A stretch of DNA of 64,000 bases from an uncultured delta proteobacterium (GCA_963755715.1 CAVWLW010000050.1:137207-201206), one strand, 5' to 3'. Positions 43,101-64,000 are shown, counted from the first letter of the stretch. Program-made: numbers and translations. The notes: a model not told the origin generated them from the sequence alone.

Positions 43101-43162
43101 AAATAAGGATCGTCGCGTGGCCATGCGCAACATGGACTCCCGCGTGCAACGATCAGTTAGGC
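43101..43162 (-). repeat. Degenerate terminal attC
   Basis: GCCTAAC-TGATC-GTTGC...GCGAC-GATC-CTTATTT; R' lacks GTT. Confidence 0.5.
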
Positions 43163-43178
43163 GCACGATCCAGACGGC

Positions 43179-43826
43179 TTATGCCCGTCTGCCCAGAAAG
43201 ACATGGGTCGCGCGTTCGCCCGCGACATAGTTGGTGCATTCATAGCCCAAGGCATGCATATCGATGCCATTCCAGAGGTGCTCGCCCGATCCGAGTAAGA
43301 CAGGCCTGATGGCCATATGCAGTTCGTCAATCAAGGCAGCGCGCAGATACTGCCGAATAGTGGATACGCCGCCACCGAGGCGAACGTCGCGGCCGCCCGC
43401 TGCTGCCTTCGCTTGCTCCAGAGCAGCGTGAATGCCTTCAGTGACAAAGCGGAACTCTGTGCCTCCCGCCATTTTGAGCGGCGCCCGCGGGTGATGCGTC
43501 AGTACGAAGACAGGCGTGTGATACGGCGGCTCGTCGCCCCACCAACCTTTCCAGCTGTCGTCCGGCCATGGACCTCGGACAGGACCAAACATGTTGCGCC
43601 CAAGAATCCAGGCGCCGATTCCGGCAAAGCTTTGCTCCGCAATTTCGTTATCCACTCCCGTCTCGCCATCCTCATGGCCGTGCATTTTCCGCCATACGCG
43701 GGTGTGGAAGAACCACTCCATCAACTCTGGTCCCCTGATGCCGAGCGGATTTTGGAGATCTTGGCTCGGTCCAGCGCCGTAACCATCGATGGAAATCGCG
43801 AAGCTTTGGACTCGTAGTTTCGACAT
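43179..43826 (-). CDS. Dihydrofolate reductase/RibD C-terminal family (cassette)
   Basis: ISIDGY, ILGRNMF, PVFVLTH, GGVSTI, IDEL..PVLLGSG. Confidence 0.9.
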   Translation of the reverse strand: MSKLRVQSFAISIDGYGAGPSQDLQNPLGIRGPELMEWFFHTRVWRKMHGHEDGETGVDNEIAEQSFAGIGAWILGRNMFGPVRGPWPDDSWKGWWGDEPPYHTPVFVLTHHPRAPLKMAGGTEFRFVTEGIHAALEQAKAAAGGRDVRLGGGVSTIRQYLRAALIDELHMAIRPVLLGSGEHLWNGIDMHALGYECTNYVAGERATHVFLGRRA

Positions 43827-43872
43827 TGCTTTTCTCACCCATTAGTAAGTGAACTGGTTCAATTCGTGGGAT

Positions 43873-43954
43873 GACTAACGACCAAGGCTGAGGAGCCCGG
43901 GCTCGCGAGCGAAGCGAGCAGGCACGAAGGTCTTTCTCAAGCCGCTGGTTAGGG
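43873..43954 (-). repeat. attC site
   Basis: gactaac...gttaggg with paired L boxes. Confidence 0.8.
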
Positions 43955-43966
43955 CTGCAAGTTGGT

Positions 43967-44167
43967 TCAGGTTAGTTCTTCAAGAAACTTTACGTCTTTC
44001 CGCAGTAACTGATTGACCATCTCGGTGACATCCTTGCCTTTCCTGCGAGCAATGCGCTCCAGTTTACTCTGCAGTTTAGGGTCGAGATAAATGGGTAGCC
44101 GTAGTTCGGCGCCTTTCCGATAAAATTTTCCTCGAACGGCTTTCGAAAAATCATATTCTCGTCTCAT
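43967..44167 (-). CDS. BrnA-like antitoxin
   Basis: MRREYDFSKAVRGKFY...MVNQLLR; overlaps the toxin stop. Confidence 0.8.
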   Translation of the reverse strand: MRREYDFSKAVRGKFYRKGAELRLPIYLDPKLQSKLERIARRKGKDVTEMVNQLLRKDVKFLEELT

Positions 44168-44400
44168 ATTTTATTTCCTCTGGTATTGCTCTTTTCATTC
44201 TTTGTTGCTTTTCGCGCTGATATCAGCCGTACTCGCGCACTCTGTTCCGCTTCTTCATGATACGTATGGGAAATAACCAACAATACACCCGTCTCATCCA
44301 ACCCCAGGGTTATCCACCTTTCTTCCTCTTCACTATGTTGATCATCGAACAGCGACAAGGCGTTCGGATCCAAGAACACTGCGCGCAGCCACGTTCAAAC
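44164..44400 (-). pseudogene. BrnT toxin, N-terminus missing or disrupted
   Basis: VFLDP..HSEEEERWITLG..RLISARKAT; no FEWD..K..N..KH start. Confidence 0.7.
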
Positions 44401-44536
44401 GTACTCGCCTGATTCTCTCGGATTCTGGTCCGAGGTAATCATCGAAGCTCGCATAAATGCCTTCATTGAAATTTCATCCACAAGTTCCCCAAAGGCGAGA
44501 CAAAAGCACGTTGGCAGCAGTCGCTGATCAGGGCGC

Positions 44537-44586
44537 CGCTAACGCTAGGCCGCTGACCCGGCATCGGGTCAAGCGGCGAGTTATCT
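44537..44586 (-). repeat. attC site (50 bp)
   Basis: AGATAAC-TCGCC-GCTTGACC...GGTCAGC...GTTAGCG. Confidence 0.75.
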
Positions 44587-44598
44587 CCCGAGATAATT

Positions 44599-44955
44599 TC
44601 AGAGCAACACGCTTAAATCAGCAGCCACCCTGCGCAGCGGCTTGTCCAAGGTCCAAAGCGCGCACCCTGTGAGAAGCGTTGAAGCTAAAAGATGAGCGTC
44701 CACCCAACCGATGCCGCTTCCGTATAGGCGCCGGGACTCAAGAAAGTTAAGAACTTCCTCATGTTCGAGCAAATGAGGTTCGGGCAAGGCTTTCAACATA
44801 CTCAGAATCTCGGTACGTTTTTGCAATGTGCCGCATGCCAACTCACCGACAACAAACGGATGGCAAAGGACTTGCTCATCAAGGAGCAGAGCTTTCAAAC
44901 GTTCGCTACCCGCTCGGAGATGCTCAATCCAAACCAAAGTGTCGACCAGAATCAT
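44599..44955 (-). CDS. vapC: VapC PIN-domain toxin
   Basis: MILVDT..WIEHL, GEL, GWVDAHLL, WTLD. Confidence 0.9.
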   Translation of the reverse strand: MILVDTLVWIEHLRAGSERLKALLLDEQVLCHPFVVGELACGTLQKRTEILSMLKALPEPHLLEHEEVLNFLESRRLYGSGIGWVDAHLLASTLLTGCALWTLDKPLRRVAADLSVLL

Positions 44956-45152
44956 GCAAGGCTGCGAGGGCGCCGTCTTCGAATCCGGCGAAGCTGCTTC
45001 TCGGTTCCTCCGAGATTTGCCAAACGGCGGGCGCTCTCCTTAGCGATCAGAGCCTCAAGTCCGAGACGTACCAACGAGGTTTTCTCTTTCACGCCCGTTA
45101 GCTTAGCAGCATCGTGTAGCAGAGAATCATCAATATTAAGCGTCGTTCTCAT
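44952..45152 (-). CDS. vapB: VapB antitoxin
   Basis: MRTTLNIDDSLL...KTSLV..GLEALI; ATGA overlap with vapC. Confidence 0.9.
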   Translation of the reverse strand: MRTTLNIDDSLLHDAAKLTGVKEKTSLVRLGLEALIAKESARRLANLGGTEKQLRRIRRRRPRSLA

Positions 45153-45195
45153 ATGCATCAAGATGCCCTAATTATGCAGATGGGGTCAACAAGAA

Positions 45196-45282
45196 AGATA
45201 ACGCGATGCGGCTAAGCCGTGGCGAATAAGCAAGCCTGAAAGGCGAGCATTTTTGACATCAGTCTTAAGCCACGGGTTAGGT
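45196..45282 (-). repeat. attC site
   Basis: agataac...gttaggt. Confidence 0.85.
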
Positions 45283-45812
45283 TGCTTTGACCTCACCGAG
45301 TTCAGGAAACAACGGCGCCAGCTCTAGATCAGAAGCCCACACTGTAAAGCCTTCGCGAACCCGCTTCTGAGAGAAAAGATGGTCGGTGAGTGCAGTAGCT
45401 AAAAGTTCCCGATATTGTGGAAAGTCCAACAACACGGACCGAAGCTACGACATCAGACGAGCACATCCCTTGCTAGAACGGTCTTGCTGTTTCCAAAAGT
45501 CACTCGCCCAATATGCGATCGCATGCGTAAGGTCGAAACTTCCGAGAACCCATTTCGACTCATCCGCCAATTCTGCCGGTGCTGCTAGGCAATCGTGGAA
45601 GTATTTGGTGACAAACACAAAAAGTTCTTCTCCCCCGAAAGGATCGACACGGGACGTGTCGGCTCGCTCGAGAAGAAAATGGAAAAGCGCACCCCTGACT
45701 TCAAGCGAAGGATCGGTCATCCAGACAGAGCATTGAGAGCGGGAAACAGGAATGCGCCTGGGCCAACCGGACTCATCCACGAACGCTTCATTAACTCTCG
45801 CGCTGTCACCAT
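45277..45812 (-). pseudogene. Cassette gene of unknown function with in-frame TAG (45445) and 5' frameshift
   Basis: Frame continues past TAG to the TAA inside the attC R'' box. Confidence 0.6.
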
Positions 45813-45825
45813 GATTCGCTCAGCA

Positions 45826-45915
45826 ACCTAACGGTCCCGGCAACCGGCGCACGTCCGGCGACGTTTGCAAGGCGCGGCGTTTCCGCGCGCGTCCGGGTTG
45901 GCCGGGCGGTTAGGC
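45826..45915 (-). repeat. attC site
   Basis: L'' GGCCAACC vs L' GGTTGCC, extra C fixes minus orientation. Confidence 0.92.
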
Positions 45916-46494
45916 GCGATCGCCATGCAGTGACTTCTCAATTCGTCGATCAGGCACCAACCACAGGATCGCTGCCACCACGTACAGCGCCTGAGCCACC
46001 CACAGCCACAGGAACGTGGAGATGATTGCACACAAATACAGGACAGGCGAGAGCTTCCCCTTCCAATCGCCGCCGATCGCCGCCTTGAGTGGCGACTCCG
46101 AGCCCTGCGAAGCAATGATTGTTTGCTGAAGAATCAAATACGCGAAGGCCGCTGCAAGGAGGACGCCGCCATAAAGCGCGGACGGTACAGGCGCGAAATG
46201 ATTCTCACCCATCCAGCCCGTAACGAACGGAAAGAGCGACAGCCAGAAAAGAAGATGCAGATTGGCCCAAAGGATGCCACCGGTCACCCGAGTGCAGGCG
46301 TGCAGCATATGGTGATGATTGTTCCAGTAGATGCCGACGTAGACGAAGCTGAGAACGTAGCTCATGAATACCGGAAGGAGGGGTGCCAGCGTTCCGACGC
46401 TGTCACCATGCGGAATCTTCATCTCCAGCACCATGATCGTAATGATGATCGCGATGACACCGTCGCTGAAGGCCTCGAGTCGGTTCTTGCCCAT
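45910..46494 (-). CDS. TMEM175/DUF1211 potassium channel family
   Basis: RLEAFSDGVIAIIITIMVLE, WNNHH. Confidence 0.92.
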   Translation of the reverse strand: MGKNRLEAFSDGVIAIIITIMVLEMKIPHGDSVGTLAPLLPVFMSYVLSFVYVGIYWNNHHHMLHACTRVTGGILWANLHLLFWLSLFPFVTGWMGENHFAPVPSALYGGVLLAAAFAYLILQQTIIASQGSESPLKAAIGGDWKGKLSPVLYLCAIISTFLWLWVAQALYVVAAILWLVPDRRIEKSLHGDRA

Positions 46495-46514
46495 TCGTGT
46501 GCCCTTGAGGCAGC

Positions 46515-46781
46515 CTAGAGGAAACGCCAACGCACCAGCACCACCGCAGCAGCGGGAACCGCGAACAGCAGGAGCAATATGGGCAATTCGTCGGCCACCG
46601 AGTAGCCTGCCTTTGAAACCCCTATCCACATGTTGGTGGCAGTGATCATCAGCCACAGACTTAGTCCAAGGGCGACTGCCCAGTTCGGAGCCGAAGGAAA
46701 ATGCTCGGAGAACATCTTCGCCACGATGAGAAGTGAAGCCATTAGGAACAAGCCAGCGACTAGGAACAGGATCGTACGCAT
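46515..46781 (-). CDS. Small membrane protein (same cassette as TMEM175)
   Basis: 3 TM segments, NMWIGV..AGYS..DELPI. Confidence 0.75.
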   Translation of the reverse strand: MRTILFLVAGLFLMASLLIVAKMFSEHFPSAPNWAVALGLSLWLMITATNMWIGVSKAGYSVADELPILLLLFAVPAAAVVLVRWRFL

Positions 46782-46823
46782 GAGGCCAATTCTCCGTACT
46801 GAGGTTGATGGGACCTGCGGCGC

Positions 46824-46904
46824 GCCTAACGTCCCGGTTTTGCCGCGCCCGACGAAGCGCGCAGCGCTGAGGCATAGGCGTCGGGCAACAACCGGCTGTT
46901 AGGT
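46824..46904 (-). repeat. attC site
   Basis: gcctaac...gttaggt. Confidence 0.9.
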
Positions 46905-47474
46905 GCCAAGGCCATGCTCGCGCGGGATTGACGCTGGCGGTCCCTGGGGTCGAGCGAGAAGCTGCTGCTCTGATACCCCTTTCTTGAATTGCTCGACGAG
47001 TTCATCTGGATCGAAGTTCACACCGATAGGATTGGCGGAAAAGGCGTCACCTCGCATGTATGCGTTGGCTTCCTCTGCCGTCGCAAAGCAATCGACCTGA
47101 AACTCGATTCGGTTTCCATCGGGATCCTTGTAGTAGAGCGACAGCGTTGGACCGTGGCGTATAGGCCAGTAAGGTCTGATGTTTAGTTTCTTCAGCCGTA
47201 TATACGTTTCGATTAGATCTCGGAGGCTCGCATATGTATAGGCCACGTGGTCCACGCCCGCATCCGACTTGCCTCCGGAGCCCTTCCCGGCCGGATCGAG
47301 CACATCCAAATTGCCGAAAGCGAAACGGTGATGCTCATCGTCGTATGTAAGGAATGCAAGAGCGGGATTCTTGTATTGCACCTTAGCCTCGAACACGCTT
47401 TCGTACCAACTAATCATCTCTTCGAAGCGTCTAGTGCGATAGACGATGTGAGCAAATTTTGAGGGCTTTGCCAT
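46899..47474 (-). CDS. VOC family protein (extradiol dioxygenase-like)
   Basis: AHIVYRT, YDDEHHR, HGPTLSLYYKDPDGN; stop in attC. Confidence 0.9.
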   Translation of the reverse strand: MAKPSKFAHIVYRTRRFEEMISWYESVFEAKVQYKNPALAFLTYDDEHHRFAFGNLDVLDPAGKGSGGKSDAGVDHVAYTYASLRDLIETYIRLKKLNIRPYWPIRHGPTLSLYYKDPDGNRIEFQVDCFATAEEANAYMRGDAFSANPIGVNFDPDELVEQFKKGVSEQQLLARPQGPPASIPREHGLGT

Positions 47475-47518
47475 GGCGTTCACTCCTTACTTATGGCGTC
47501 GTTTTCCCGGTCAATGGC

Positions 47519-47584
47519 GCTTAACGGATCAGCGATAAGCTCCGGGCTCCGAAAGCGACCGTCAGCTTCATCGCCTGGTTATGC
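47519..47584 (-). repeat. attC site
   Basis: gcttaac...gttatgc. Confidence 0.85.
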
Positions 47585-47645
47585 GACTCATCTCACCATC
47601 TCGAACCCAGCACGATAGCGAGTTCTCGATGCATGCCACCGAGCA

Positions 47646-48165
47646 CTAGGAATCGCGGAAATCGGTGATACGGGAGGGTCGGCGCATGGTGGCCGTAATG
47701 CGTCGGCCCGCGCTCACGTGGGGGTCGGCGGGTACGCGAGTCTGCGCGGCGTACTCGAGCAGCAGGCCGTTGGGATCCTTGAAGTAGATCGACAGGATCC
47801 AATCGTGATCGACGATCGGCGTGACCTTGACGCCCTTGGCGATCAGCTCCGCCCGCTTCGCGTGCAACTCTTCGATCGAGCCAGCGTTGAAAGCGAAATG
47901 GTAGAACCATTCGGGCAAGCCGAGGCTTTGATTGATGCCGGTGTCGTATTGGGCTGGTAGTCCTTTGATCCCGCGAGGCTCCATGAATCCGAGGAGTTGG
48001 CCATCGCCACAGTCGAAGAACGCGTGGCGGATACTCCCCCCTTCTTCGAAATCGATCTGCTCAATGGTCACGAGGCGGAAGCCGAGCACATCCTCGTAGA
48101 AGGTGCGGGTAGCTTCGAAGGTCGAGCGTCGAGAGGCCGATGTGTGAAACGCCGTGTAGCGACAT
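47646..48165 (-). CDS. VOC family protein, +1 frameshift near 48119
   Basis: SHIGLST then FYEDVLG, HFAF, SIYFKDPNG. Confidence 0.82.
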
Positions 48166-48273
48166 GTTCTCCTCCGTTCACCTAGGGTTCCCTCAATGGC
48201 GGTAGCCCAGCTGGAGCTGCTTTGCAAGACAACGACGATCCGGCGCGACTGGGGACCTCGAAACCCTCCATCC

Positions 48274-48321
48274 GCATAACCTCAAGGCTGCCCGCTTGTC
48301 GGGTCAATCCGATTGTTATGC
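48274..48321 (-). repeat. attC site (48 bp, imperfect L boxes)
   Basis: gcataac...gttatgc. Confidence 0.65.
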
Positions 48322-48342
48322 CGTTTGCAGGTCAGTATTTGA

Positions 48343-49050
48343 TCACATCTCGAACCCGTCTGATGGTGTCAAGGGATTCACCAGGATTATTTTGCTCCAA
48401 GGGACGTCAAGCTGAACCAGCTTCCGTAACTGGTTCCGATCCGCTTTATCCAAATCTCCGTACCCAATACGGTCGTCAAAGGCGAGCCACCACTCCGAAT
48501 ACTTGCTCCTCACCTTGGAGACCTTCAGGGCTTTTTCAGCCATGCAGATTCGAATGTTTTGCACCATGTCTGAAATGACGAAGCCACCCGAATCGTGATC
48601 CGACCAGCTACCGAGGACGAGCAAATTCGGATGGAGTTCGGTTGCACGAGTGAAGCTGAGTCGCAATGTATCTGCAACACATACTCTACGCGTCCCGAGT
48701 TCTGGTTGCTCCCTGATCTCTCGCAGTACGTTCCGAAGAGCTATATCGAGTTTTCGCCAAGGCGGTAGTGGACGGCGATAGGAATACCAAACGAACCAAC
48801 TTACCCCAAACGTGGGGGGACCTGTTGCAACGAGTGCCTTTTCGATCAGGGCAGTCAGAGGCTTTGACACTTCCTCAAGACCACGATGCCCGGTTGTAGT
48901 TTTTTCGTTCTCGTTCAGTCGACGCACTTCAACCGCAATTCGGCCGTCGATTGTAAAGTCAGGCGGAATATTGCCATCGGGCTCGTATACGATGTTGATA
49001 AAGCCGCGGCTCTTGAGGTACTGGAAAACAACCTTCTCGGAATGATCCAT
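48343..49050 (-). CDS. Hypothetical protein, possible PD-(D/E)XK nuclease fold
   Basis: EPDGNIPPDF...IAVEVRRL. Confidence 0.7.
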   Translation of the reverse strand: MDHSEKVVFQYLKSRGFINIVYEPDGNIPPDFTIDGRIAVEVRRLNENEKTTTGHRGLEEVSKPLTALIEKALVATGPPTFGVSWFVWYSYRRPLPPWRKLDIALRNVLREIREQPELGTRRVCVADTLRLSFTRATELHPNLLVLGSWSDHDSGGFVISDMVQNIRICMAEKALKVSKVRSKYSEWWLAFDDRIGYGDLDKADRNQLRKLVQLDVPWSKIILVNPLTPSDGFEM

Positions 49051-49068
49051 TTAAATCGAGGCTTAGCG

Positions 49069-49177
49069 GCATAACGACCGAATTAACCGGGCCCGCGCGA
49101 GCAGCATCCAAGTTTATGGCAAAGAGCAATCATGAAAAGAGAGCTATCGCGGGCTCCGGTTGAATGAGTTGTTAAGC
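49069..49177 (-). repeat. attC site
   Basis: gcataac...gttaagc. Confidence 0.88.
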
Positions 49178-49211
49178 CGCTAACCGAACTGTCCGAACAT
49201 CGGACACGGCT

Positions 49212-50360
49212 TTAAGTTTTTGGCCCAATATTGCCCGGTCCAGTCTCTTCGTTTTGTGACACTGCCGGATCCGAGTTTGGACTGGTGGCGATCCAACCCA
49301 TGAAGATTTGATACCCAAGCGCCAACAACGTCGCGCCGACAAACATTCCTAAAATTCCGCCGCTCGCCATACCGCCCAATGCGCCGAGCAGGATCACCGG
49401 CATGGGTGCGTCGACGCCGCGACCCAGCATCAGCGGTTTCAAAACGTTGTCAGCCATGCCGGTCAGCAGCAGGATGATGGTATGTGTGATCGCCGCCGCG
49501 GTGCGGTAATCACCACTCGACCAGATGTAAATGATGGCTGGAACCGTGACGATTAGGGCTGGCACTTGGGCAATACCCAATACGAGCGCGATGGCCGACA
49601 ACACGCCCGCCGCCGGTACGCCGGCGAGCAGCAGCGCCAACCCGATGAGGATTGCCTGAATGAAGGCGACGCCGATGACGCCTAGCGCGACGGCGCGGAT
49701 GGTTGCCGTGGAGAGTTTGGCGAGGGCCTCGCCTCTCGCGGCGCCAGCGACACGAACGAAAATCGCCCGGCTGCCGCGCGCGCCTGATTCACCGTATGCC
49801 ATCAGGATGCTGGCGACGAGGAATGAGACTAGAAACAGCAACAGGCCGCTGCCAATGCTTGCGACCATAGCAACTGCTTTCTGGGCCAATTCGCCGATCT
49901 TCGGTTGCATGCTCTGCACGAATCCGGGCAGGTCGGTATGAGCTTTCGACCAGACATCGTGGATCTGCTTGCCAACTAGCGGCCATTTCTCAACGCCCTC
50001 TCGCGGGGCGGGTATTGCCAGCGTGTTTTGTTGCACAGCGCCGATAAAATGACGAACGGAGTCGGCAAACGAATTCATCAGCAACGCCATCGGAGTGATG
50101 ATCAACAAAAGGCCGACGATCACCAGAATAGTCGAGGCGAGCCATTGCTTCCCGCCAACCTTGTGGGCGAGCCATTGGTGCAACGGATACAACGTGACCG
50201 CCAAGATGATTGACCAGACCATCAGCGTCAGAAATGGCGAAAAGACTTGGTAGCACAGCACCGCCAGCACGCCAATCAAACTGGCGCGAATCAACACATC
50301 CATCAGAGAGGACGACGCTCGCTGTTCCAATTCGGAATCTGCCTGTGGAAGGGGATTCAT
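49212..50360 (-). CDS. AI-2E family transporter
   Basis: DNVLKPLMLGRG...GILGMFVG. Confidence 0.92.
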   Translation of the reverse strand: MNPLPQADSELEQRASSSLMDVLIRASLIGVLAVLCYQVFSPFLTLMVWSIILAVTLYPLHQWLAHKVGGKQWLASTILVIVGLLLIITPMALLMNSFADSVRHFIGAVQQNTLAIPAPREGVEKWPLVGKQIHDVWSKAHTDLPGFVQSMQPKIGELAQKAVAMVASIGSGLLLFLVSFLVASILMAYGESGARGSRAIFVRVAGAARGEALAKLSTATIRAVALGVIGVAFIQAILIGLALLLAGVPAAGVLSAIALVLGIAQVPALIVTVPAIIYIWSSGDYRTAAAITHTIILLLTGMADNVLKPLMLGRGVDAPMPVILLGALGGMASGGILGMFVGATLLALGYQIFMGWIATSPNSDPAVSQNEETGPGNIGPKT

Positions 50361-50465
50361 TGGTTTTATCCTCTTGCGAGGTTGAATCGGCCGCCCTCAG
50401 TGTACTACGTAAGAATGGCGAGTAAACAGTCGTATGAGTCATCGCCACCTGTTTTGCCTCAGGCG

Positions 50466-50524
50466 GCCTAACGCCGCGGATCAGGCGCGGCTATTTGCCG
50501 TCGCCTGCATCCGGATTGTTGGCT
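50466..50524 (-). repeat. attC site
   Basis: gcctaac...gttggct. Confidence 0.85.
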
Positions 50525-50913: not shown

Positions 50914-50931
50914 CTTGTCACCAACCTCTCC

Positions 50932-51534: not shown

Positions 51535-51540
51535 CTGTCG

Positions 51541-54290: not shown

Positions 54291-54313
54291 GGCGGCCCCG
54301 TAGGAAACCCTCC

Positions 54314-55731: not shown

Positions 55732-55746
55732 CGCAAACGCGACACG

Positions 55747-57057: not shown

Positions 57058-57076
57058 CCTGATCCTCCCCCGGGCT

Positions 57077-57136
57077 GCCTAACGTTATGGGTGAGAGGCG
57101 CGGTCTGCCGCGTCCTTTTCAACCCAATGGTTAGCC
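57077..57136 (-). repeat. attC site
   Basis: gcctaac...gttagcc. Confidence 0.85.
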
Positions 57137-57280
57137 GTATGGCACCACTTAGGTCGTGCCATCTAGGGTTTCATAGTCTGGCCGCCATCCTCAGGGTCCC
57201 CGCCCAAACTAGCAGCGAGTAGCGCTTTTCCCTACGCAGTTAACGTGTGGGAAAACCAGCACAGTGATTACCAATCAGGT

Positions 57281-57715
57281 TCATCGTGTTGTTCTAGCCC
57301 CCTGAGAGTTTTTTTCGAAGCGGTCTACATTCTGCGGAAAAACCATCCAGTGCTGGGCCGAACGTGTCCAGACGTGCCTATCTATCTTGATCCAGTTGGG
57401 ATCGTCGAAAGTGCCCCCCGTGACAATGCGGACGCCTGGAAACTTCTCGAGACTCAACATAACAGTTGTTGCGCACCGGTTGCAGAAGTGCAACCGCAAC
57501 CAAAGATTGCTTTCATCGGAGCGCTGTTCGTATGTAGTAAGCCCATCGCCCGCTGACTCGATATTCTGCTCATCGAAGAAAGCATGAATGCTCAACGCAC
57601 CACCGGTACGCCGTTGACAAAAGGTGCAATAACACGCTGACACTCGTAGTGGCGTTCCATTAACGCGGTACCGTATCGCCCTACAAACACAGCCACCCTC
57701 ATGGATTTCGGATAT
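57281..57715 (-). CDS. GFA (glutathione-dependent formaldehyde-activating) family, ATA at start position
   Basis: HEGGCVC..CYCTFCQR..FCNRC; aaggagg 8 nt upstream of ATA. Confidence 0.82.
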   Translation of the reverse strand: MSEIHEGGCVCRAIRYRVNGTPLRVSACYCTFCQRRTGGALSIHAFFDEQNIESAGDGLTTYEQRSDESNLWLRLHFCNRCATTVMLSLEKFPGVRIVTGGTFDDPNWIKIDRHVWTRSAQHWMVFPQNVDRFEKNSQGARTTR

Positions 57716-57751
57716 TGAGAAACCCTCCTTTTCTATGACTCTTCTGCCGGC

Positions 57752-57843
57752 TGCTAACGCTGGGCATAACCGGGCGCGCGCACTTTATTCAGGGAACGAT
57801 AAGAAACTGCGCTCGCGCGCTCCGGTTGATGCCCTTGTTAGAT
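57752..57843 (-). repeat. attC site
   Basis: tgctaac...gttagat. Confidence 0.9.
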
Positions 57844-57851
57844 GCCGTCGA

Positions 57852-58238
57852 TCACGCCCCAGGCTCGACCCACTGAGCGCGCCAAGCAGGAGCGTCGAAG
57901 GGATCGGCGAAGTATTGAGTCTCGTGCGACACCTTTCCATCCCGGAACTCCATGATACTCACGGTGTAGGCGCGCTTGCCCTCGTAGGTAATCACATACT
58001 CGGTAACCCAGAGATTGCCCTCTCCTACGATCCGCAGGACCACAAAACCTGATGGTCTACCAGGGTGATGGCTACGAAGCGCTTGCAGGTTACGCCGACC
58101 GCGGATGACCTCGCCTGACTGTGGGTACTCGCACACAGTATCATCGTGATAGATTTCATGCTCGGCAACTTGATCACCCGCAGCGGATGCAGCCCAATGT
58201 CGATCAATGGCCATCCGAATATTCTGTTCTTCCATCAT
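57852..58238 (-). CDS. NTF2/SnoaL-like protein
   Basis: YPQSGEVIRG..ETQYFADPFDAPAWR. Confidence 0.9.
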   Translation of the reverse strand: MMEEQNIRMAIDRHWAASAAGDQVAEHEIYHDDTVCEYPQSGEVIRGRRNLQALRSHHPGRPSGFVVLRIVGEGNLWVTEYVITYEGKRAYTVSIMEFRDGKVSHETQYFADPFDAPAWRAQWVEPGA

Positions 58239-58286
58239 CGGCCTCCATTTGAGTCCGCGTGCTTACGACACCAACGCTTAGTAGGC

Positions 58287-58374
58287 ATCTAACGCTCGGC
58301 GTCATGCGCGGCTGGAAGCGGGAGCGAGGCACGAGCGGACGCTGGCAGCCGTCGCTGGCTCGCCGTGGTTAGGC
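58287..58374 (-). repeat. attC site
   Basis: atctaac...gttaggc. Confidence 0.88.
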
Positions 58375-58493
58375 CCTTACGCCGCTGCGCAGCCGTTCAA
58401 CGGGAAGGAACTGCTCAGCGTTTCCGGGTTGCCTCTGATCCCGTCTTGGGAGGAGTTCCTTGGAAGGCGCATGTCCTCACCCAATCTCGTCCA

Positions 58494-59459
58494 CTACTTC
58501 TCCAATGAGAAGCCGGTCAGATAGTCAACGATAGCCTGCGCTATGAAGGTATGTCCCTTGATCGTAGGGTGCCACACATCGTAGGCGTATTCCGCCGCGT
58601 CTCGCCCCCGAAAGCTGGCGTAAAGATCAAGAAACGCTAAATCATTCTCCTCGCAGAGGCCCCTGATGAAAGCGTGGAGATCCTGCCAGGGGTAGGGCTC
58701 GTCCAGCTTGAACTGAAACACCGGACTGAGGACCACAAGGATTGGCACCTGCCGATCGCGGCTGATCTGGCCTAAGTGGCGAAACTGGGTGATAGTTTGG
58801 TCTCGATATCGGGCATGGATGAGGTGATGGTACTCACGTGGGTAGCCATGCAGTCGGTCCAGTATGTTCGTCAGTGCGCGTTTTCCCAGGTCGACCAGCG
58901 CGCTTGTGGCGGCGTAGTACTGGACAAGTCCTCCATCTCTTGTGTCCGGATCGTTTAAAACATAGCTGATGATAACCAGGCTTGGCTGTAACGCCAGGCC
59001 ATGCGTCTCAAGCAGCCTGATCTCCTGTGCTGTTGAGTATCCATCCACCGAAAGGTTATAGACGATGGAAGATGCGCGAGGCTTCAGCCTTCGCTCGTGA
59101 AGCTGGCTCTCGAGCACTTGGGGGAATGCCGCAGCCATTGGCACTCCCCATCCCCAGGCCACCGAATCACCCAGCACCACAATCCGGTAGACCTCGTCGG
59201 GAAGCGTTTCGGGGAATTCGTCGTCTCGAAAACCGGCAGAGTTAATCGCTATTGCGACACCCTCCCGTACAGTCTTCGCGCCCGGGACCAACTCGTAAAT
59301 CAGCATGGGATCACGAGATTTCTTGTGGAGTTTCACGGAACCACCGACGAGCGGATCGGCCATTGTTGGAACGCGATAGTATCGAAGACCAGCCTCTGCG
59401 AGCACCAACACCACGAAAGTGGGAAGCAATCCCATCATAAATAGACTCGCTCGTCGCAT
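58494..59459 (-). CDS. SGNH/GDSL hydrolase, membrane anchored
   Basis: LGDSVAWG, ND, DVWHP. Confidence 0.9.
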   Translation of the reverse strand: MRRASLFMMGLLPTFVVLVLAEAGLRYYRVPTMADPLVGGSVKLHKKSRDPMLIYELVPGAKTVREGVAIAINSAGFRDDEFPETLPDEVYRIVVLGDSVAWGWGVPMAAAFPQVLESQLHERRLKPRASSIVYNLSVDGYSTAQEIRLLETHGLALQPSLVIISYVLNDPDTRDGGLVQYYAATSALVDLGKRALTNILDRLHGYPREYHHLIHARYRDQTITQFRHLGQISRDRQVPILVVLSPVFQFKLDEPYPWQDLHAFIRGLCEENDLAFLDLYASFRGRDAAEYAYDVWHPTIKGHTFIAQAIVDYLTGFSLEK

Positions 59460-59491
59460 ATCTCGCAATTGATCCCGTGCTTATCTGTCTT

Positions 59492-59554
59492 GCCGAACGT
59501 TCTTGATCAGCCGCCGGTTGCTTGCAACCGGTCGGCCGCATCAAGTGGTTAGGG
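59492..59554 (-). repeat. attC site
   Basis: gccgaac...gttaggg. Confidence 0.85.
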
Positions 59555-59989
59555 GGCATTGTTTCGTTCCTCGCGCACTTTGACGTGTGCGCCTGGGGGA
59601 GCGTCACCACCGACGCACACGCGATGGCCGTCGGGGTCGCAAACCTCGAACTCCACGAGTCCGTACAACATCCGTTCTGGTCCGCGGAGAAGTTTCGCTT
59701 TCTTCTCAACCGCGCCAGCGACGTCGAGCACTGTTGCTCCGGAGATCCGTAGATAAATGGACCAAAGAAACTCTGGATCAGACTTGCGCTCGGAAGGATC
59801 TGCCGCTCGTGCTTCGTCCGCGCATTGGAGCATGATCTCCGCACCGTCTCGTCGCAGTATGGCGAACGAGTATGGAGGAGTCTTGGGAAACGTATCAGGC
59901 GTGAAGCCAAGAACATCGACGTACCATCGCAAGCTCGTCGCCACGTTGGCGACCTGCAGCACCGGAACCGCTCGTTGATATGCGTACAT
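59549..59989 (-). CDS. VOC family protein (bleomycin-resistance-like)
   Basis: VPVLQV..WYVDVLGF..YGLVEF..DPDGH. Confidence 0.88.
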   Translation of the reverse strand: MYAYQRAVPVLQVANVATSLRWYVDVLGFTPDTFPKTPPYSFAILRRDGAEIMLQCADEARAADPSERKSDPEFLWSIYLRISGATVLDVAGAVEKKAKLLRGPERMLYGLVEFEVCDPDGHRVCVGGDAPPGAHVKVREERNNAP

Positions 59990-60021
59990 TAGACCTCCGG
60001 GACCTCCGTGTGCTTCATGCA

Positions 60022-60106
60022 CCCTAACGAGTTGCCGCTGAGCCGCTAACAGAAATGGAATCATTCATCACTAAATCTCGCCGTCGGCTCAAGCGGCGGG
60101 TTATGT
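60022..60106 (-). repeat. attC site
   Basis: ccctaac...gttatgt; sister of the attC at 60470. Confidence 0.9.
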
Positions 60107-60457
60107 GCGGCGACGCTTCCTAGTAGGTACCACCCGAAGCCGGTACCCCCACTCCCCAAAGTGCTCATAGCTTTCCACGGAAATCTCTCGACTCTCTCCA
60201 GCCACCTCCATCGCCAGCACGCCGCGATTATGTTGTTCCAGACCAGTCGCACGTACAATGAAGCGAGTAATCCGACTCCCCTCCTCAGTGCTAACCACCG
60301 TGCCGAGTCCAGTGTTACCCACAATCCAACACACCTCTAAGCCCTCTGGTACCGGCTCCAGCGACACCGAATCAGCATCCCCAGCCAGCGCGCGCTCCAC
60401 GATATCTTGAAGGGCTGCCGGCGGCCGAACTGGAGTGTGAGTGCTTCGCGAACTCAT
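60101..60457 (-). CDS. Hypothetical protein resembling the GspE/PilB N2 domain
   Basis: IVERAL..DADSVSLEP..LEV..; stop in attC. Confidence 0.65.
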   Translation of the reverse strand: MSSRSTHTPVRPPAALQDIVERALAGDADSVSLEPVPEGLEVCWIVGNTGLGTVVSTEEGSRITRFIVRATGLEQHNRGVLAMEVAGESREISVESYEHFGEWGYRLRVVPTRKRRRT

Positions 60458-60469
60458 GACATCTACAGC

Positions 60470-60554
60470 GCATAACGCGATGCCGCTGAGCCGCTAATAG
60501 ATAGAGAAATTATTTACCATCGAATCTCGCGTCGGCTCAAGCGGCGGGTTAGGC
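60470..60554 (-). repeat. attC site
   Basis: gcataac...gttaggc, L'' GCTTGAGC / L' GCTCAGC. Confidence 0.92.
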
Positions 60555-60666
60555 CAATCCTTTACCCGTGACTCGCTCAGCTGACTCAGCAAGATGCAAG
60601 ATCTTAGTGATTTAACTCCCGTAGGTTCAGGAGCTAACGCCGAGAGGTCGCGATCAGGGCAGATCC

Positions 60667-61344
60667 TTACTTCTCTGCGAAGCAGTAGAATCGGCCCGCA
60701 CCTCCGCCGGGAGCGGTATCGGCGCAGCTTCGACTCTCATGCGCCGAGTTCCACGAACCGGAGGCTCCCGCGGTATTGCCACCAAGTCCGATCCCGTCAA
60801 CGTGACCCACTTGCGCCTGCATGTCGGGAGATTCTGACGTCCAGTCGTTGCAGGTTTTCCCTGGCACGACTCTACCTTCGGCTGTCGAGCCAGTCAGAAT
60901 GTCGTGTTCGTTGGGTTTCGGCGACCCAGGCCAAGCACCCGGAACCGGTTGCCCCCGTTCGTCGACAAACAAGATCGGGTTTCCTTTACGCTCGTGGAGG
61001 TCGATGAGATCTTTACCGACCATGAGTCCGTTAGCATTGAACCAAGGGCCGTTGCCGATTCGATCGCGCGCATTGGTGGGCTTATTGTTGTTCGCAGGAT
61101 CGCGCTCCACACTCAAGTATGCGCGCCACGTCTTATCCCCTTGCCCCACGGCGGTCGCCAAAGTTTGGCAAATCCGATCCGCACCCGCCAAGCCGCCCAG
61201 GTTGCCGGTTTTACTCTTGGCGCTCGTAACAAAAAAACCCATGCTCGGGGGTGGCGCGCCGGCGGTGTAAACAATTCGGTCCATACCGCCGGCAGCAACA
61301 ACCGCCAGCGTCGCGATTGCAAGTAGTGCCTTGTAAAATTTCAT
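60667..61344 (-). CDS. Secreted endostatin/lectin-like protein
   Basis: FFVTS..GNLGGLAGADRICQ..WRAYLS..NARDRIG..FYCFA. Confidence 0.82.
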   Translation of the reverse strand: MKFYKALLAIATLAVVAAGGMDRIVYTAGAPPPSMGFFVTSAKSKTGNLGGLAGADRICQTLATAVGQGDKTWRAYLSVERDPANNNKPTNARDRIGNGPWFNANGLMVGKDLIDLHERKGNPILFVDERGQPVPGAWPGSPKPNEHDILTGSTAEGRVVPGKTCNDWTSESPDMQAQVGHVDGIGLGGNTAGASGSWNSAHESRSCADTAPGGGAGRFYCFAEK

Positions 61345-61589
61345 AAGATTTCCTCTTTAAGCTTTAGGTTTGGTTCTAAGTTTCATGCCTGCAAAGGCGC
61401 CGAATCTGGCGCTCGCCGCAGAGCTGGGCCGTTTGCTCTGTGAAAGCACGGGAGCAAGGTGCGCAGGCGCACCTGCACCTGGTAGCCTACGACGCGAAGC
61501 CGCATTTCTCACCTCTCTATGTGGTTTCTTCTCAATGCGTTGAGAGGTGAGAATTTTGCCTCCTTACCCGGTCAGATTACAATCCCCAG

Positions 61590-62624
61590 TCAAGTCAGGG
61601 GACTCTCGACCGATCTTTCGGAGAAGTCCAGCAAGACCTTTTGCTGTCCTGCCTCACCATCGGCTAGGCGTACTGCCTCTTGGAAGTCCTTAAATGAATA
61701 CCGCACAATCGCTGGCGGCGTAAGTGCTCCGTTCGACAACATGGTGAGGAGATCGCTCGTCGCTGCCCGCACTTCGGCGAGCGGCTGGGAACTCACCCAA
61801 CGCGGAAGCCACCACCCGCGAACCGTCGCTGTCGAATAAATCAAACGCGGAGCGAAGAGCGGCATGGTGAATTTCGCGGGGTCCGTCTGCCGATGACTGG
61901 AAAGGGCTCCATACACAAGCATGGTTCCAGCGGGAGCGAGGTTGCGGGCAATCTCAGCGCCAAGTTCCCCGGCAACGCAGTCAATCGCTCGTTCAACGCC
62001 CTTGCCCGCGGTCAATTCCTGCAGGCGTGCCCTGAGATCCTCGTCGGCTGTGCAGATTACCTCATTGCCTCCGAGGTTGCGTATGATTGTTTCCTGCTCG
62101 CGCCGCCGGATGACGTTGATTGTCTTGAATCGATACTGCTGCGCCAATTGAAGCACCAACTTCCCGACGCTGGATGCAGCCGCCGTCTGTAGGAGCCAGT
62201 CGCCCTCCTTGAGATTGTGACTTGATCTCGTCAATGCCCATGCAGTCAAAGGATTCGTGCAGGAAGTGGCGGCGGCCGGATCGTCCAGGCCGTCTGGAAC
62301 GGGCACGAGTCTGTCCACTGGGCACACGATCTGCTCGCGCCAGGTGTGCCACGTGTGAACGAAAACTACGCGAGTTCCAACAATCGGACCTTGCACGCCC
62401 GGACCTACAGCCTCCACAATCCCCACGCCTTCAGCGCCCGGGCTGGCTGGCAATTCCGGCTGATAGCCATAGCGCCCGCGCACCATGTGCAGATCCGATG
62501 GGTTGATCGGGCTCAGCAGCACTCGGACGAGCGCTTCGCCAGGGGCCAAAGGCGGAGTAGGGATCTCTGCCAGTTTCAATACGCTCTTCGGTTCACCGGT
62601 CTCGCGAAAGATCAATGCTTTCAT
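61590..62624 (-). CDS. MDR family NADPH oxidoreductase (enoyl-thioester reductase-like)
   Basis: INPSD, PGAEGVG, NPLTA, TAAASSVG. Confidence 0.9.
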   Translation of the reverse strand: MKALIFRETGEPKSVLKLAEIPTPPLAPGEALVRVLLSPINPSDLHMVRGRYGYQPELPASPGAEGVGIVEAVGPGVQGPIVGTRVVFVHTWHTWREQIVCPVDRLVPVPDGLDDPAAATSCTNPLTAWALTRSSHNLKEGDWLLQTAAASSVGKLVLQLAQQYRFKTINVIRRREQETIIRNLGGNEVICTADEDLRARLQELTAGKGVERAIDCVAGELGAEIARNLAPAGTMLVYGALSSHRQTDPAKFTMPLFAPRLIYSTATVRGWWLPRWVSSQPLAEVRAATSDLLTMLSNGALTPPAIVRYSFKDFQEAVRLADGEAGQQKVLLDFSERSVESPLT

Positions 62625-62641
62625 CAATACCTCCTGGGTCT

Positions 62642-62833
62642 TTAGGCGACGGCTGATTCCGGCCGGATGTTCTGTTGCGCGTACCAGATACCTCGGTTCA
62701 GTGTGAGCGTTACGGTGACCGGGTTGCGGCACGCAAGGTTCGTGACTGGCGAGTGCTGCACGCTGCGAGCGGAGACGCCGAAGAGTATCCCGGCGAGAAG
62801 GACCAATCCGAGCATCGGTATGTACGTAATCAT
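62642..62833 (-). CDS. Small hypothetical membrane protein
   Basis: gaggag RBS, hydrophobic N-terminus. Confidence 0.45.
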   Translation of the reverse strand: MITYIPMLGLVLLAGILFGVSARSVQHSPVTNLACRNPVTVTLTLNRGIWYAQQNIRPESAVA

Positions 62834-62986
62834 CGGTTGCTCCTCACGTGACGAGAAAAGGCTTCTTTCGCTGTTCTACCTCGAGGGCTTCTACGATGCC
62901 ACCCAGTTTGCCTCACTACCCTCACTGTAGCCTCATCATGCGATGATGACGCTGCCCACTTCGTTAACCGCTCGCGCCCGAGAGCC

Positions 62987-63072
62987 GCCGAACGTCCCGG
63001 TTCAGCGGCGGTGCGCTGATCTTCGTGCGTTGGCACTTATCCATCACCGTCCCCTGCAACCGGTTGTTAGAC
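62987..63072 (-). repeat. attC site
   Basis: gccgaac...gttagac. Confidence 0.9.
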
Positions 63073-63164
63073 GGCATTGATTGCGCATCGAGATGCGGAA
63101 CCTACCCTGTCAAAATGGACGGCTGCGGGAGATAGCTTCCCCCAAGCAGCATGCCCCAGGGTTT

Positions 63165-63962
63165 CTAACGCCTTAGCGTCGGCGTGGGCTCCTCCGGCAG
63201 GACTTGGAGCAGCACATCTGGTCGCACGGAGATCTCCCCCGTGAACGGCCGGTGATGGGACGCGATCAGCACCACTGAGACGGCCACCCCGGTCGCAAAC
63301 AGCCCCATCGCCACAGCAGCACTCGTTCGGTTGTCACTATGGACCATGGCGATCGCGATCAAGGTGCAGAGGGCCTGCAGGAGTAGACCGGTCCACTTGA
63401 CCCAGTTGACACCCGATTGGCTGACAATGATTCGCTGGCGGCGCGCATCAAGGGCGTTCTGCACCGCGGTGACGATCTCACGTTGTGCCGCCACCTGGCC
63501 ATCGCTGCGGGGCGTCAAGCCGAGGCTCACCCGCAGCGCCTCGGCCAGCGGGGCCGGGTTCATCGTGAGCGTGGCGCTTCCACCTGCCATCGCCGGCCAT
63601 TCCTGCGACACAACATCCTCAATCTGGCGGTGGACCAACGCGCGCAGCTCCGTCTCCGGCTCTCCAGGGAAGCTCCGGGCCAGGAGGACGACGGCGCGCA
63701 ACGCACTCGCCTCACGGTTCACCGCGGCGTGGGCCCGATCAAGATCACCCCAAACCTGCGCGGCCATAAATGCCACGAGCAGACCGAAGATGATCCCGAG
63801 CGGGGGCAACATGCCAGGCGAGATCGCCGTGAACGCACGTGCCCGCTCGCCGACCGCGAGGGCCATGACGAGCCAATAAATTCCCCCGGCGATCAGGTAG
63901 ATCACGGCGAATACTACGAGGCTCATCCATGCGGTCCGGAGGTGCTGAAACCAATGGATCAT
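63165..63962 (-). CDS. DUF4239 / bestrophin-like membrane protein
   Basis: LGIIFGLLVAF..VW..REASAL..EWPAM..PFTGEISV. Confidence 0.85.
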   Translation of the reverse strand: MIHWFQHLRTAWMSLVVFAVIYLIAGGIYWLVMALAVGERARAFTAISPGMLPPLGIIFGLLVAFMAAQVWGDLDRAHAAVNREASALRAVVLLARSFPGEPETELRALVHRQIEDVVSQEWPAMAGGSATLTMNPAPLAEALRVSLGLTPRSDGQVAAQREIVTAVQNALDARRQRIIVSQSGVNWVKWTGLLLQALCTLIAIAMVHSDNRTSAAVAMGLFATGVAVSVVLIASHHRPFTGEISVRPDVLLQVLPEEPTPTLRR

Positions 63963-64000
63963 ATGCTCCTCTACCTCGGGGATCTCCCAGAGTTTGTCCG

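Follow-up and report, generated by a model that had tools for sequence, protein, structure and literature searches.

A large integron cassette array with heterogeneous attC sites beside dnaE2 in a probable Binatia chromosome

Introduction

Integrons are best known from Gammaproteobacteria, and Binatia is a widespread, uncultured lineage of soil and sediment. Here we describe an integron cassette array in a 64,000-nucleotide stretch of DNA deposited as an uncultured delta proteobacterium (GCA_963755715.1, CAVWLW010000050.1:137207-201206; the whole stretch is called the window hereafter). The array lies at 43.1-64.0 kb, directly upstream of dnaE2, which encodes an error-prone DNA polymerase. It is a genuine large cassette array in what the DnaE2 sequence indicates to be a Binatia chromosome, and it belongs to a known kind of element. 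Three of its features are notable: the attC diversity at 22 sites is at the level of mobile integrons, the attC structure deviates slightly from that of class 1, and in related genomes integrons are recurrently anchored in the same orientation at imuB/dnaE2. We put at roughly 60% the probability that a Binatia chromosomal integron has the distal part of its cassette array at 43.1-64.0 kb.

According to PMC9024848 (cited here from extracts, as are PMC4889954, PMC3575428 and PMC5027507), Gammaproteobacteria account for 93% of the complete integrons in finished genomes, and sedentary chromosomal integrons are recognized by having more than 10 attC sites, a threshold that the 22 supported sites of the window exceed. 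Among arrays, the longest have the most homogeneous attC sites, and those with heterogeneous sites are small in nearly all cases (Cury et al. 2016, PMC4889954). In attC sites, positions 16 and 23/24 of the R''-L'' arm are extrahelical, and a stem of 6 bp separates the two (Nivina et al. 2016, PMC5027507).

With sedentary chromosomal integrons, both the Vibrio type and the one that we compared from Gemmatirosa, the array shares its chromosomal setting, more than 10 attC sites, co-oriented cassettes and mostly unknown or accessory genes including toxin-antitoxin pairs. The Gemmatirosa array (G. kalamazoonensis KBS708, 1.1-Mb replicon, plasmid 1, NZ_CP007129.1, 15001-30369; locus L087) has 27 attC sites in 14 kb, on the same strand as its IntI, which in the plasmid collection is the nearest relative (59%) of the integron integrase at a related dnaE2 locus, L002. 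Its sites are mostly 94-99 nt long (two are 130 nt), whereas those of the window range from 48 to 112 nt, and no integrase lies within the window. At L002 and at a second related locus, L030, the integrase is on the cassette strand, as it is in the inverted integrase group, of which Treponema is an example; this is a likeness of orientation. The inverted integrase group is one of three groups of intI (PMC3575428). The definition of a cluster of attC sites lacking an integrase (CALIN; at least two attC sites and no intI) formally applies within the window, which ends inside the array. CALINs with more than 10 sites make up 6.6%, and as a CALIN the 22-site window would be among the rare large ones (PMC4889954).

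Results and Discussion

Recognition of the array

Between 43.1 and 64.0 kb all long open reading frames (ORFs) are on the minus strand, and nearly every gap between them, read on that strand, contains an imperfect palindrome bounded by TAAC...GTTA. Twenty-two attC sites are supported by covariance models; they lie between 43,873 and 63,072, without exception on the minus strand. One further site, g1 (43101-43162), is a decayed terminal remnant that keeps the R''/L'' half; its 3' half is conserved dnaE2 leader, homologous to the related locus L025, and none of the three models scores it. Cassette units number 23, of which 21 are bounded on both sides within the window, one is terminal with the decayed site, and one is cut by the window end. 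The original prediction, made from the sequence alone, of at least 24 cassettes was therefore too high, and the 23 palindromes that it reported were correct in length (48-112 nt) and now stand as 22 supported sites and one remnant. Each of the 22 sites has an ORF whose end falls somewhere from 33 nt inside the attC to 145 nt before it, and the six stop codons that had been placed in R'' (45277, 45910, 46899, 51007, 59549 and 60101) do fall in the TAA of the R'' TAAC, at offset -5. The genes flanking the array are chromosomal in type (thiI, ABC transporters, dnaE2 and tRNA-Arg).

Three covariance models were used. MAFFT applied to all 20 sites misaligned the 3' arms, so that model R1 was built from the 11 window sites that aligned cleanly and run with filters off over the whole window, and R2 was then built from a model-guided alignment of 18 window sites; R3 was built from 13 class-1 attC sequences off plasmids only. 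Positions 1-43,000 of the window, both strands, served as control. R1 recovered 10 of the 12 candidates on which it had not been trained, all on the minus strand at E<0.1 (1e-10 to 0.089), namely g21, g16, g20, g10, g7, g17, g11, g2, g8 and g19. Among them, g10 had not been recognized by eye and was first found by this model; g13 and g1 were not recovered by it. R2 gave 21 minus-strand sites at E<=0.013. R3 gave 22 minus-strand sites in the window, 18 of them at E<0.01 (g13 included) and four at E 0.057-0.23. In the 43-kb control the best E was 3.3 for R1, 2.6 for R2 and 2.5 for R3. The signal is also strand-specific: with R1 the sites do not exceed 20.5 bits on the plus strand but reach up to 77.6 bits on the minus strand, and with R3 the plus strand scores at most 12.2 bits.

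The window-trained model also finds attC sites in integrons of another kind. Class-1 integrons were located in the plasmid collection with the L002 integrase, and ten regions were taken. R2 found 13 sites in eight of the ten regions (E<=0.05), all on the cassette sense strand and directly after aadA1, aacA4, dfrA14, blaVIM, aac(6')-Il, blaOXA-1, blaGES-4, catB and similar genes; it missed at least the dfrA7 site, and the dfrA1 site reached only E=0.37. R3 is not fully independent of the window because the window-trained model served both to select its 13 sites and to align them. The integron cassette architecture proposed originally is thus supported by three covariance models, one of which contains class-1 sequences only, and by the 13 class-1 sites found with a window-trained model.

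Simpler searches performed poorly. A strict RYYYAAC...GTTRRRY pattern gave 5 pairs in the whole window and is too strict for these sites; bulges interrupt the arms, so that a generic inverted-repeat finder picked up a single attC; and Rfam has no attC family, so that only the tRNA was matched in the window. Loose stem-scoring matched as many places in the control as in the array and was replaced by the covariance models.

Structure of the attC sites

The 11 cleanly aligned sites share a common structure: a 7-bp R helix, a 3-nt spacer, 5 bp, a one-base bulge, 6 bp, another one-base bulge and a further stem. In the 18-site alignment 88.2% of the cells are paired, versus 67.3% in shuffled sequences (0 of 500 shuffles reach the observed value) and 23-42% with slid partners, and compensatory changes are present in 17 of 22 pairs; fitting the alignment to the model favours the structure, a bias that the slid-partner control offsets in part. 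The R helix is 83% paired and the L helix 90.8%, with compensatory changes in 14 of the 15 pairs of the latter. When the bottom strand is folded as single-stranded DNA, it beats shuffled sequences in 16 of the 20 sites folded (z<=-1.9; range -0.10 to -5.17), out of 22. The boxes described originally as RYYYAAC and GTTRRRY hold in their core, AAC being present in all 22 sites, GTT in 21 and TAAC in 20; the full consensus is exact only in 12 of 22 and 7 of 22 sites, respectively. Single-base bulges occur at columns 16 and 23 with six pairs between them, and this spacing agrees with the geometry in PMC5027507.

The class-1 sites fit the structure of the window sites, with 84.4% of the cells paired, and share the 7-bp R helix, the invariant AAC/GTT and the bulges at columns 16 and 23 six bp apart. 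A model trained on either set finds the other, the class-1 set comprising sites of aadA1, aacA4, dfrA14, blaVIM, blaOXA-1, blaGES and others. The second bulge is mostly A on the sense strand in both sets (12/18 in the window, 9/13 in class 1). The first bulge differs: on the sense strand it is G in 9, T in 6 and C in 3 of the 18 window sites, whereas it is C in 9 of the 13 class-1 sites, which corresponds to the usual bottom-strand G. The central spacer, for attC usually some 5-6 unpaired nt per arm, is present but also differs. On the 5' arm it is 3 nt in the window versus 5 nt in class 1 (on the 3' arm of the window sites it is 4-6 nt), owing to two additional base pairs whose positions stay mostly open in class-1 sites (paired in 16/18 and 17/18 window sites versus 3/13 class-1 sites). 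Such natural variants, with a shorter spacer and a different first extrahelical base but still recognized by the class-1 model, could be used to test what integrases require of attC.

Heterogeneity of the attC sites and origin of the cassettes

Pairwise identity was computed with a crude metric, matches divided by the longer length after global alignment. By this measure the mean identity is 0.48 in the window array (231 pairs), 0.52 among 11 class-1 attC types (55 pairs), 0.67 in the L030 array (21 pairs) and 0.77 in the homogeneous 27-site Gemmatirosa array (351 pairs); shuffled window sites give 0.33 (231 pairs). The heterogeneity noted in the original prediction is therefore real. The window sites are about as diverse as the class-1 set and lack the homogeneity expected of a sedentary chromosomal integron, and the array departs from the trend for long arrays to be homogeneous, as given in the extracts of PMC4889954. 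A large, well-formed array in Binatia with such diverse attC sites, contrary to the homogeneity reported for long arrays, is of interest for this reason. Within the array, g12 and g24 are 0.86 identical, and g21 and g22 0.80.

Several window attC types recur in Binatia relatives, g22 at L035 (9680-9763, identity 0.82), g17 at L004 (30-89, 0.83), g3 at L035 (0.78) and g2 in the L030 family (0.73-0.77). At least in part, then, the diversity reflects a pool common to the clade. G+C content at third codon positions (GC3) is 0.60 +/- 0.087 in the cassette ORFs (n=28) and 0.67 +/- 0.043 in the backbone (n=26), that is, lower (Mann-Whitney, p=0.001) and more dispersed (Levene, p=0.003) in the cassettes. 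For the 436-aa protein of cassette 16, a protein cluster of 100% identity exists, and its nearest named relatives are from metagenome-assembled genomes (MAGs) of Terriglobia (81%) and Vicinamibacterales (75%), with Binatia at 71% and 70%. It is plausible that the cassettes were sampled from many donors; the GC3 values and the relatives of the 436-aa protein would fit varied sources without proving them.

Integrons at the imuB/dnaE2 locus of related genomes

We kept 80 loci (1.25 Mb, best identity 84%) from a DnaE2 scan of a genome collection. R2 run over these loci gave 21 matches at E<=0.074 in eight of them, all on the dnaE2 strand, and three marginal matches elsewhere (E 0.083-0.22). R3 was applied to 13 dnaE2 loci and to the Gemmatirosa locus. 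Among the dnaE2 loci it confirmed 21 sites, in the eight that R2 had picked out, and it found no attC in L001, L003, L005, L010 and L011. An attC within 10 kb of dnaE2 is thus found in 8 of 80 loci, and all eight fall in the Binatia-type clade of a 49-row tree. The sites lie upstream of dnaE2 in L002 (1), L004 (4), L025 (1), L028 (4) and L035 (2), and downstream of it in L019 (1), L026 (1) and L030 (7-8).

The gene orders are of two kinds, imuB-intI-cassettes-dnaE2 (L028, together with L002 and the window, which lack imuB in the sequence in reach) and imuB-dnaE2-intI-cassettes (L030 and L026). L002, which has the closest DnaE2 in the scan (84% in its best segment), shows the order intI, HigA-type cassette, attC, second cassette, dnaE2 (1308-7180). 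Its integron integrase is intact, 361 aa long and on the cassette strand (TIGR02249, 457 bits with a cut-off of 265, full profile), and a GTTAGGC motif follows intI after about 155 nt. In L030 (8020-20248) the order is imuB, dnaE2, intI, cassettes, and intI starts 21 nt past the dnaE2 stop codon. L026 (13165-14342) has dnaE2, the last 21 codons of intI and an attC; L028 (2146-9854) has imuB, a 28-codon intI stub, four attC sites and dnaE2; L019 (8497-13557) has imuB, dnaE2, an RHH ORF and an attC. No intI was found within the flanks taken for L035 and L019. The two arrangements, integron upstream or downstream of dnaE2, separate with one change on a quick tree (support 85). In most of the remaining loci imuB abuts dnaE2 directly, and some close relatives have no integron at dnaE2 (L003, L001 and L005). 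Across the clade, integrons or remnants of them keep to the imuB/dnaE2 locus and, in every case, to the dnaE2 strand, in two arrangements. For a cassette array this genomic anchor, dnaE2, is unusual.

The integron occupies the same locus in these related genomes (eight loci) with variable cassettes. Only cassette 7 of the 23 has a homologue in the relatives' arrays by blastn (its glyoxalase gene, in L004, 82% over 600 nt), and it stands there at another array position. Gene order is therefore not fixed, and the sites do score with attC models; a failing model and a fixed order were the two outcomes named beforehand as speaking against an integron.

Other features of the related loci may be mentioned. 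The integrase gene of L030 is split by an rve-family transposase (an insertion sequence, IS; 14110-14928), and an ORF with a reverse-transcriptase domain (RVT_1, 21129-21683) that may be a group II intron lies inside its cassette array. In L035 a 410-nt segment occurs twice (9743-10152 and 10741-11148, 91% identity), flanking a ParD/ParE-type cassette; it consists of the attC 3' arm, a leader of about 240 nt and the first 155 nt or so of dnaE2, so that the first copy ends in a truncated 5' fragment of dnaE2. An integron integrase (P0184) and an error-prone polymerase (P0106), each labelled as from a 'Chloroflexota bacterium' MAG, both have a longest contig of 53,104 bp, which hints at another contig with both.

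Nature of the array

Several observations weigh against the array being the distal part of a chromosomal integron. Neither intI nor attI nor the cassette promoter Pc was found in the window, which ends within the array; for a gene with an IntI-specific domain, Pfam and NCBIfam scans and tblastn with the L002 IntI were negative over the 64 kb, as the original statement that no tyrosine recombinase is present would have it. The terminal attC has decayed, and two long gaps have no supported site. The class-1 model R3 is independent in sequence content, not in register. In the four relatives in which the position of intI is visible, the gene is intact only in L002. Finally, among the best 120 relatives of the L002 IntI none is tied to contigs with a near-identical DnaE2 or cassette protein, although this is weak evidence, since for each protein cluster only the longest contig is given and the gene could be split by frameshifts. 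Some of these points suit a CALIN, that is, an attC cluster that has lost its integrase or has it only in inactive form, with cassettes that stay put unless they are acted on by an integrase from elsewhere in the cell: intI is broken or deleted in three of those four relatives (by the IS in L030, and in L026 and L028), attC sites stand beside dnaE2 in L035 and L019 with no intI within the flanks taken, no intact IntI cluster could be tied to near-identical contigs, and the terminal site is decayed. We regard a CALIN as a real possibility, at clearly less than even odds. On the other side, the 22 sites keep their pairing, with AAC in 22/22 and GTT in 21/22, and this conservation suggests that recombination was recently under selection; complete sedentary integrons exceed large CALINs in their number of attC sites, as far as the extracts of PMC9024848 go; the closest relative, L002, has an intact intI; and the window simply stops inside the array. 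For the source genome, we estimate that the odds of an intact intI adjoining the array are about even, and recombination in the array may be active now or have been so recently.

Two further explanations are much harder to reconcile with the data. The array could belong to a mobile integron borne on a plasmid or transposon, or could have been joined to a Binatia chromosome fragment by an assembly chimera, and the attC diversity at mobile-integron level, the likely indel errors in the assembly and the inconsistent taxon labels among the MAG bins of the clade would all be in keeping with this. However, the junction between attC array and dnaE2, on the same strand, is found independently in L002, L004, L025, L028 and L035, and the junction upstream of the window dnaE2 is homologous to that of L025. 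The number of sites is also that of a sedentary integron (22 against a threshold of more than 10 in PMC9024848), and general Pfam and NCBIfam scans of the window turned up no transposase or plasmid gene, which leaves this explanation very improbable. Even less credit can be given to the reading that the sites are palindromes of an ordinary intergenic sort, REP-like elements or terminators, which lie between genes of one orientation and have nothing to do with integrons. The scarcity of strict RYYYAAC...GTTRRRY pairs, the single site reported by the inverted-repeat finder and the lack of a matching Rfam family might seem to favour it, but it is already contradicted: the class-1 model finds 22 sites on one strand, all in the array and none in the control, the window-trained model finds attC sites in class-1 integrons and beside the bona fide integrases of L002, L030 and Gemmatirosa, and the strand asymmetry and bulge spacing match those of attC.

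A possible link to the SOS response

If the array is the distal part of a chromosomal integron, its working may be described from what is established for integrons. The 23 gene units on the minus strand, promoterless or self-contained, would each end in an attC. The attC bottom strand, which is the plus strand of the window, would fold into a hairpin with two extrahelical bases, and IntI would cut at the conserved triplet (GTT on the cassette sense strand). Cassettes would be excised as circles by attC x attC recombination and re-inserted at attI next to intI. The attI and intI platform would be expected beyond the right-hand end of the window, oriented like the cassettes on the minus strand, as in L002, and the BrnT and VapBC toxin-antitoxin cassettes may stabilize the array.

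A bolder and rather unlikely proposal is that the integron of the Binatia clade is built into the SOS mutagenesis locus; taken with attC diversity at mobile-integron level in a large array, it would then be a sedentary integron with a promiscuous integrase, physically coupled to the mutasome. If this is true, one DNA-damage signal could turn on the error-prone polymerase, the integrase and cassette shuffling jointly, and dnaE2 in the window would be the fixed last 'gene' of the array. A functional linkage to imuB/dnaE2 would also be a hard-wired link of stress-induced mutagenesis with gene-cassette shuffling. To our knowledge, the two have so far been known only as belonging separately to the SOS regulon. 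The words operon, imuA and 'same orientation' are absent from Cambray et al. 2011 (PMC3108266).

Contents of the cassettes

The cassettes, their attC sites and the features at the left end of the array are listed in Table 1. The cassette genes include four PF00903 glyoxalase/VOC proteins and one PF06983 protein, and 9 of the 29 ORFs scanned have no Pfam family. VOC/glyoxalase proteins, a GNAT acetyltransferase, two toxin-antitoxin pairs and unknowns are functions typical of environmental integrons. None of 28 cassette proteins matched a PADLOC defence model. Of 15 cassette proteins compared with NCBIfam, 13 have no family, and the other two match models (FosA, aminoglycoside acetyltransferase and others) far below the curated cut-offs. 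With no resistance model at cut-off and no defence match, the array has no direct clinical angle.

Table 1. Features of the cassette array and of its left end. E-values refer to covariance models R1, R2 and R3; 'untrained' marks a site on which the model had not been trained.
Feature	Coordinates	Strand	Content or support
tRNA-Arg(ACG)	39638..39714	-	ARAGORN; Rfam tRNA 68.3 bits; first feature past dnaE2
dnaE2 (error-prone DNA polymerase)	39943..43039	-	NCBIfam NF004225: 760 bits (3-612) and 587 bits (607-1047); Pfam
Cassette 1 (terminal)	43101..43878	-	RibD_C ORF 43179-43838 (Pfam PF01872)
attC g2	43873-43954	-	R1 E=0.014 and R2 E=1.3e-4 (untrained), R3 E=0.23
Cassette 2	43879..44542	-	BrnT toxin 44164-44379 (PF04365) and 66-aa partner 43967-44167
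attC g3	44537-44586 (50 nt)	-	R3 E=0.11; in R1 training set
Cassette 3	44543..45201	-	VapB 44952-45161 (PF09957) and VapC/PIN 44599-44955 (PF01850)
attC g4	45196-45282	-	R3 E=0.0012; stop codon in R'' TAAC
Cassette 4	45202..45831	-	Two small ORFs 45445-45780, 45277-45435; no family
attC g5	45826-45915	-	R3 E=2.8e-6; stop codon in R''
Cassette 5	45832..46829	-	TMEM175-like channel ORF (PF06736), stop 45910, true start below 46824
attC g6	46824-46904	-	R3 E=3.3e-9; stop codon in R''
Cassette 6	46830..47524	-	Glyoxalase/VOC ORF 46899-47483 (PF00903)
attC g7	47519-47584	-	R1 E=9.6e-6 (untrained), R3 E=2e-4
Cassette 7	47525..48279	-	Glyoxalase/VOC ORF 47646-48227 (Pfam)
attC g8	48274-48321 (48 nt, shortest)	-	R1 E=0.02 and R2 E=0.013 (untrained), R3 E=0.16
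Cassette 8	48280..49074	-	235-aa ORF 48343-49050; no family
attC g9	49069-49177	-	R3 E=2.8e-9
Cassette 9	49075..50471	-	AI-2E family transporter 49212-50360 (PF01594)
attC g10	50466-50524	-	R1 E=4.9e-6 (untrained), R3 E=9.6e-7
Cassette 10	50472..50937	-	~146-aa ORF, stop 50491; no family
attC g11	50932-51012	-	R1 E=0.0032 (untrained), R3 E=0.0026; stop codon in R''
Cassette 11	50938..51546	-	GNAT acetyltransferase 51007-51534 (PF00583); no NCBIfam resistance model at cut-off
attC g12	51541-51630	-	R3 E=4.8e-10; R' is ATT instead of GTT
Cassette 12 (two genes)	51547..53483	-	138-aa ORF 53044-53460 and MFS transporter 51682-53004 (Pfam)
attC g13	53477-53571	-	Only R3 scores (E=0.0085); R2 E=4.2; DNA fold z=-5.17
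Cassette 13	53484..54204	-	Glyoxalase/bleomycin-resistance-fold ORF 53656-54018 (Pfam)
attC g14	54199-54290	-	R3 E=4.3e-8
Cassette 14	54205..54775	-	142-aa ORF 54314-54742; no family
attC g15	54770-54871	-	R3 E=0.057; in R1 training set
Cassette 15	54776..55625	-	PF06983 (3-dmu-9_3-mt, VOC-like) ORF 54936-55454, Pfam 167 bits
attC g16	55620-55731 (112 nt, longest)	-	R1 E=8.5e-9 (untrained), R3 E=2e-6
Cassette 16	55626..57082	-	436-aa alpha/beta-hydrolase-like ORF 55747-57057 (weak Pfam match)
attC g17	57077-57136	-	R1 E=3.1e-5 (untrained), R3 E=1.1e-6
Cassette 17	57083..57757	-	GFA-domain ORF 57281-57643 (PF04828)
attC g18	57752-57843	-	R3 E=5.2e-8
Cassette 18	57758..58292	-	SnoaL-like ORF 57852-58238 (PF12680)
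attC g19	58287-58374	-	R1 E=0.089 and R2 E=0.0013 (untrained), R3 E=4.4e-4
Cassette 19	58293..59497	-	GDSL lipase/acylhydrolase 58494-59468 (Pfam)
attC g20	59492-59554	-	R1 E=7e-8 (untrained), R3 E=1.9e-4; stop codon in R''
Cassette 20	59498..60027	-	Glyoxalase/VOC ORF (Pfam), stop 59549, start below attC at 60022
attC g21	60022-60106	-	R1 E=1.2e-10 (untrained), R3 E=0.002; stop codon in R''
Cassette 21	60028..60475	-	118-aa ORF 60101-60457; no family
attC g22	60470-60554	-	R3 E=6.4e-6
Cassette 22 (two genes, 2.5 kb)	60476..62992	-	Zinc-type alcohol dehydrogenase 61590-62732 (Pfam) and 225-aa ORF 60667-61344
attC g24	62987-63072	-	R3 E=2.7e-8
Cassette 23 (upstream end beyond window)	62993..64000	-	Bestrophin-like ORF 63165-63962 (PF14023, 186 bits)

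Two cassettes carry two unrelated genes each without a supported attC between them, and the covariance models support no attC in the corresponding gaps (61345-61589, 245 nt, and 53005-53043). A weak R2 match on the minus strand at 53028-53117 (13.9 bits, E=0.58), between the 138-aa ORF and the MFS transporter gene, may be a decayed site. The gap at 61345-61589 contains a perfect 12-bp inverted repeat (61506-61517 and 61542-61553) that resembles a terminator.

The dnaE2 gene, the left flank and the lineage

The N-terminus of DnaE2 starts at 43039, 60-odd bases from the end of the array, and the gene lies on the cassette strand immediately downstream of the final cassette. A 1-nt shift near 41271 ('cttgaag'; region 41057-41271) divides its reading between two frames; relatives of 97% identity are full length, with 1031 aa. 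Partial profile matches are seen in other backbone ORFs as well, an amidase (28030-29124) matching positions 122-482 of a 486-position profile and an SDR (19310-20206) only about the first 115 positions, so that assembly indel errors are as likely as true pseudogenes. imuB is absent from the window, and a tRNA gene next to dnaE2 was not found in the loci of 27 relatives.

The closest relatives of the window DnaE2 are metagenomic proteins of 95-99% identity, and the named ones, at 74-84%, are mostly from Candidatus Binatia MAGs. A quick maximum-likelihood tree of 49 rows places the window in an 11-row clade of Binatia-type MAGs (SH-aLRT 99), by which we take the host to be a Binatia bacterium. 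The expectation of a little-studied lineage agrees with this placement, and the literature searched gave no paper with 'integron' together with 'Binatia' or 'Binatota'. Public annotation already carries 'integron integrase [Candidatus Binatia bacterium]' for this protein family, so that Binatia integrases are in the databases although no discussion of them in print was found in the literature searched. Two loci whose DnaE2 and attC sites fall in the Binatia clade (L004 and L026) are labelled Candidatus Acidiferrales (Acidobacteriota), and other clade members are labelled Syntrophobacter, Udaeobacter or Thermodesulfobacteriota; labels that conflict within one clade indicate that MAG bin labels are unreliable there.

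To the left of the tRNA-Arg gene are ordinary metabolic genes, as in an ordinary chromosome. Further to the left, at 8551-16897, is an ABC transporter with an ATPase gene (9676-10779), a fused permease gene (10801-12525) and a row of paralogous periplasmic binding-protein genes (12682-13917, 13685-14713, 14759-15772 and 15857-16897), the first two of which overlap in different frames.

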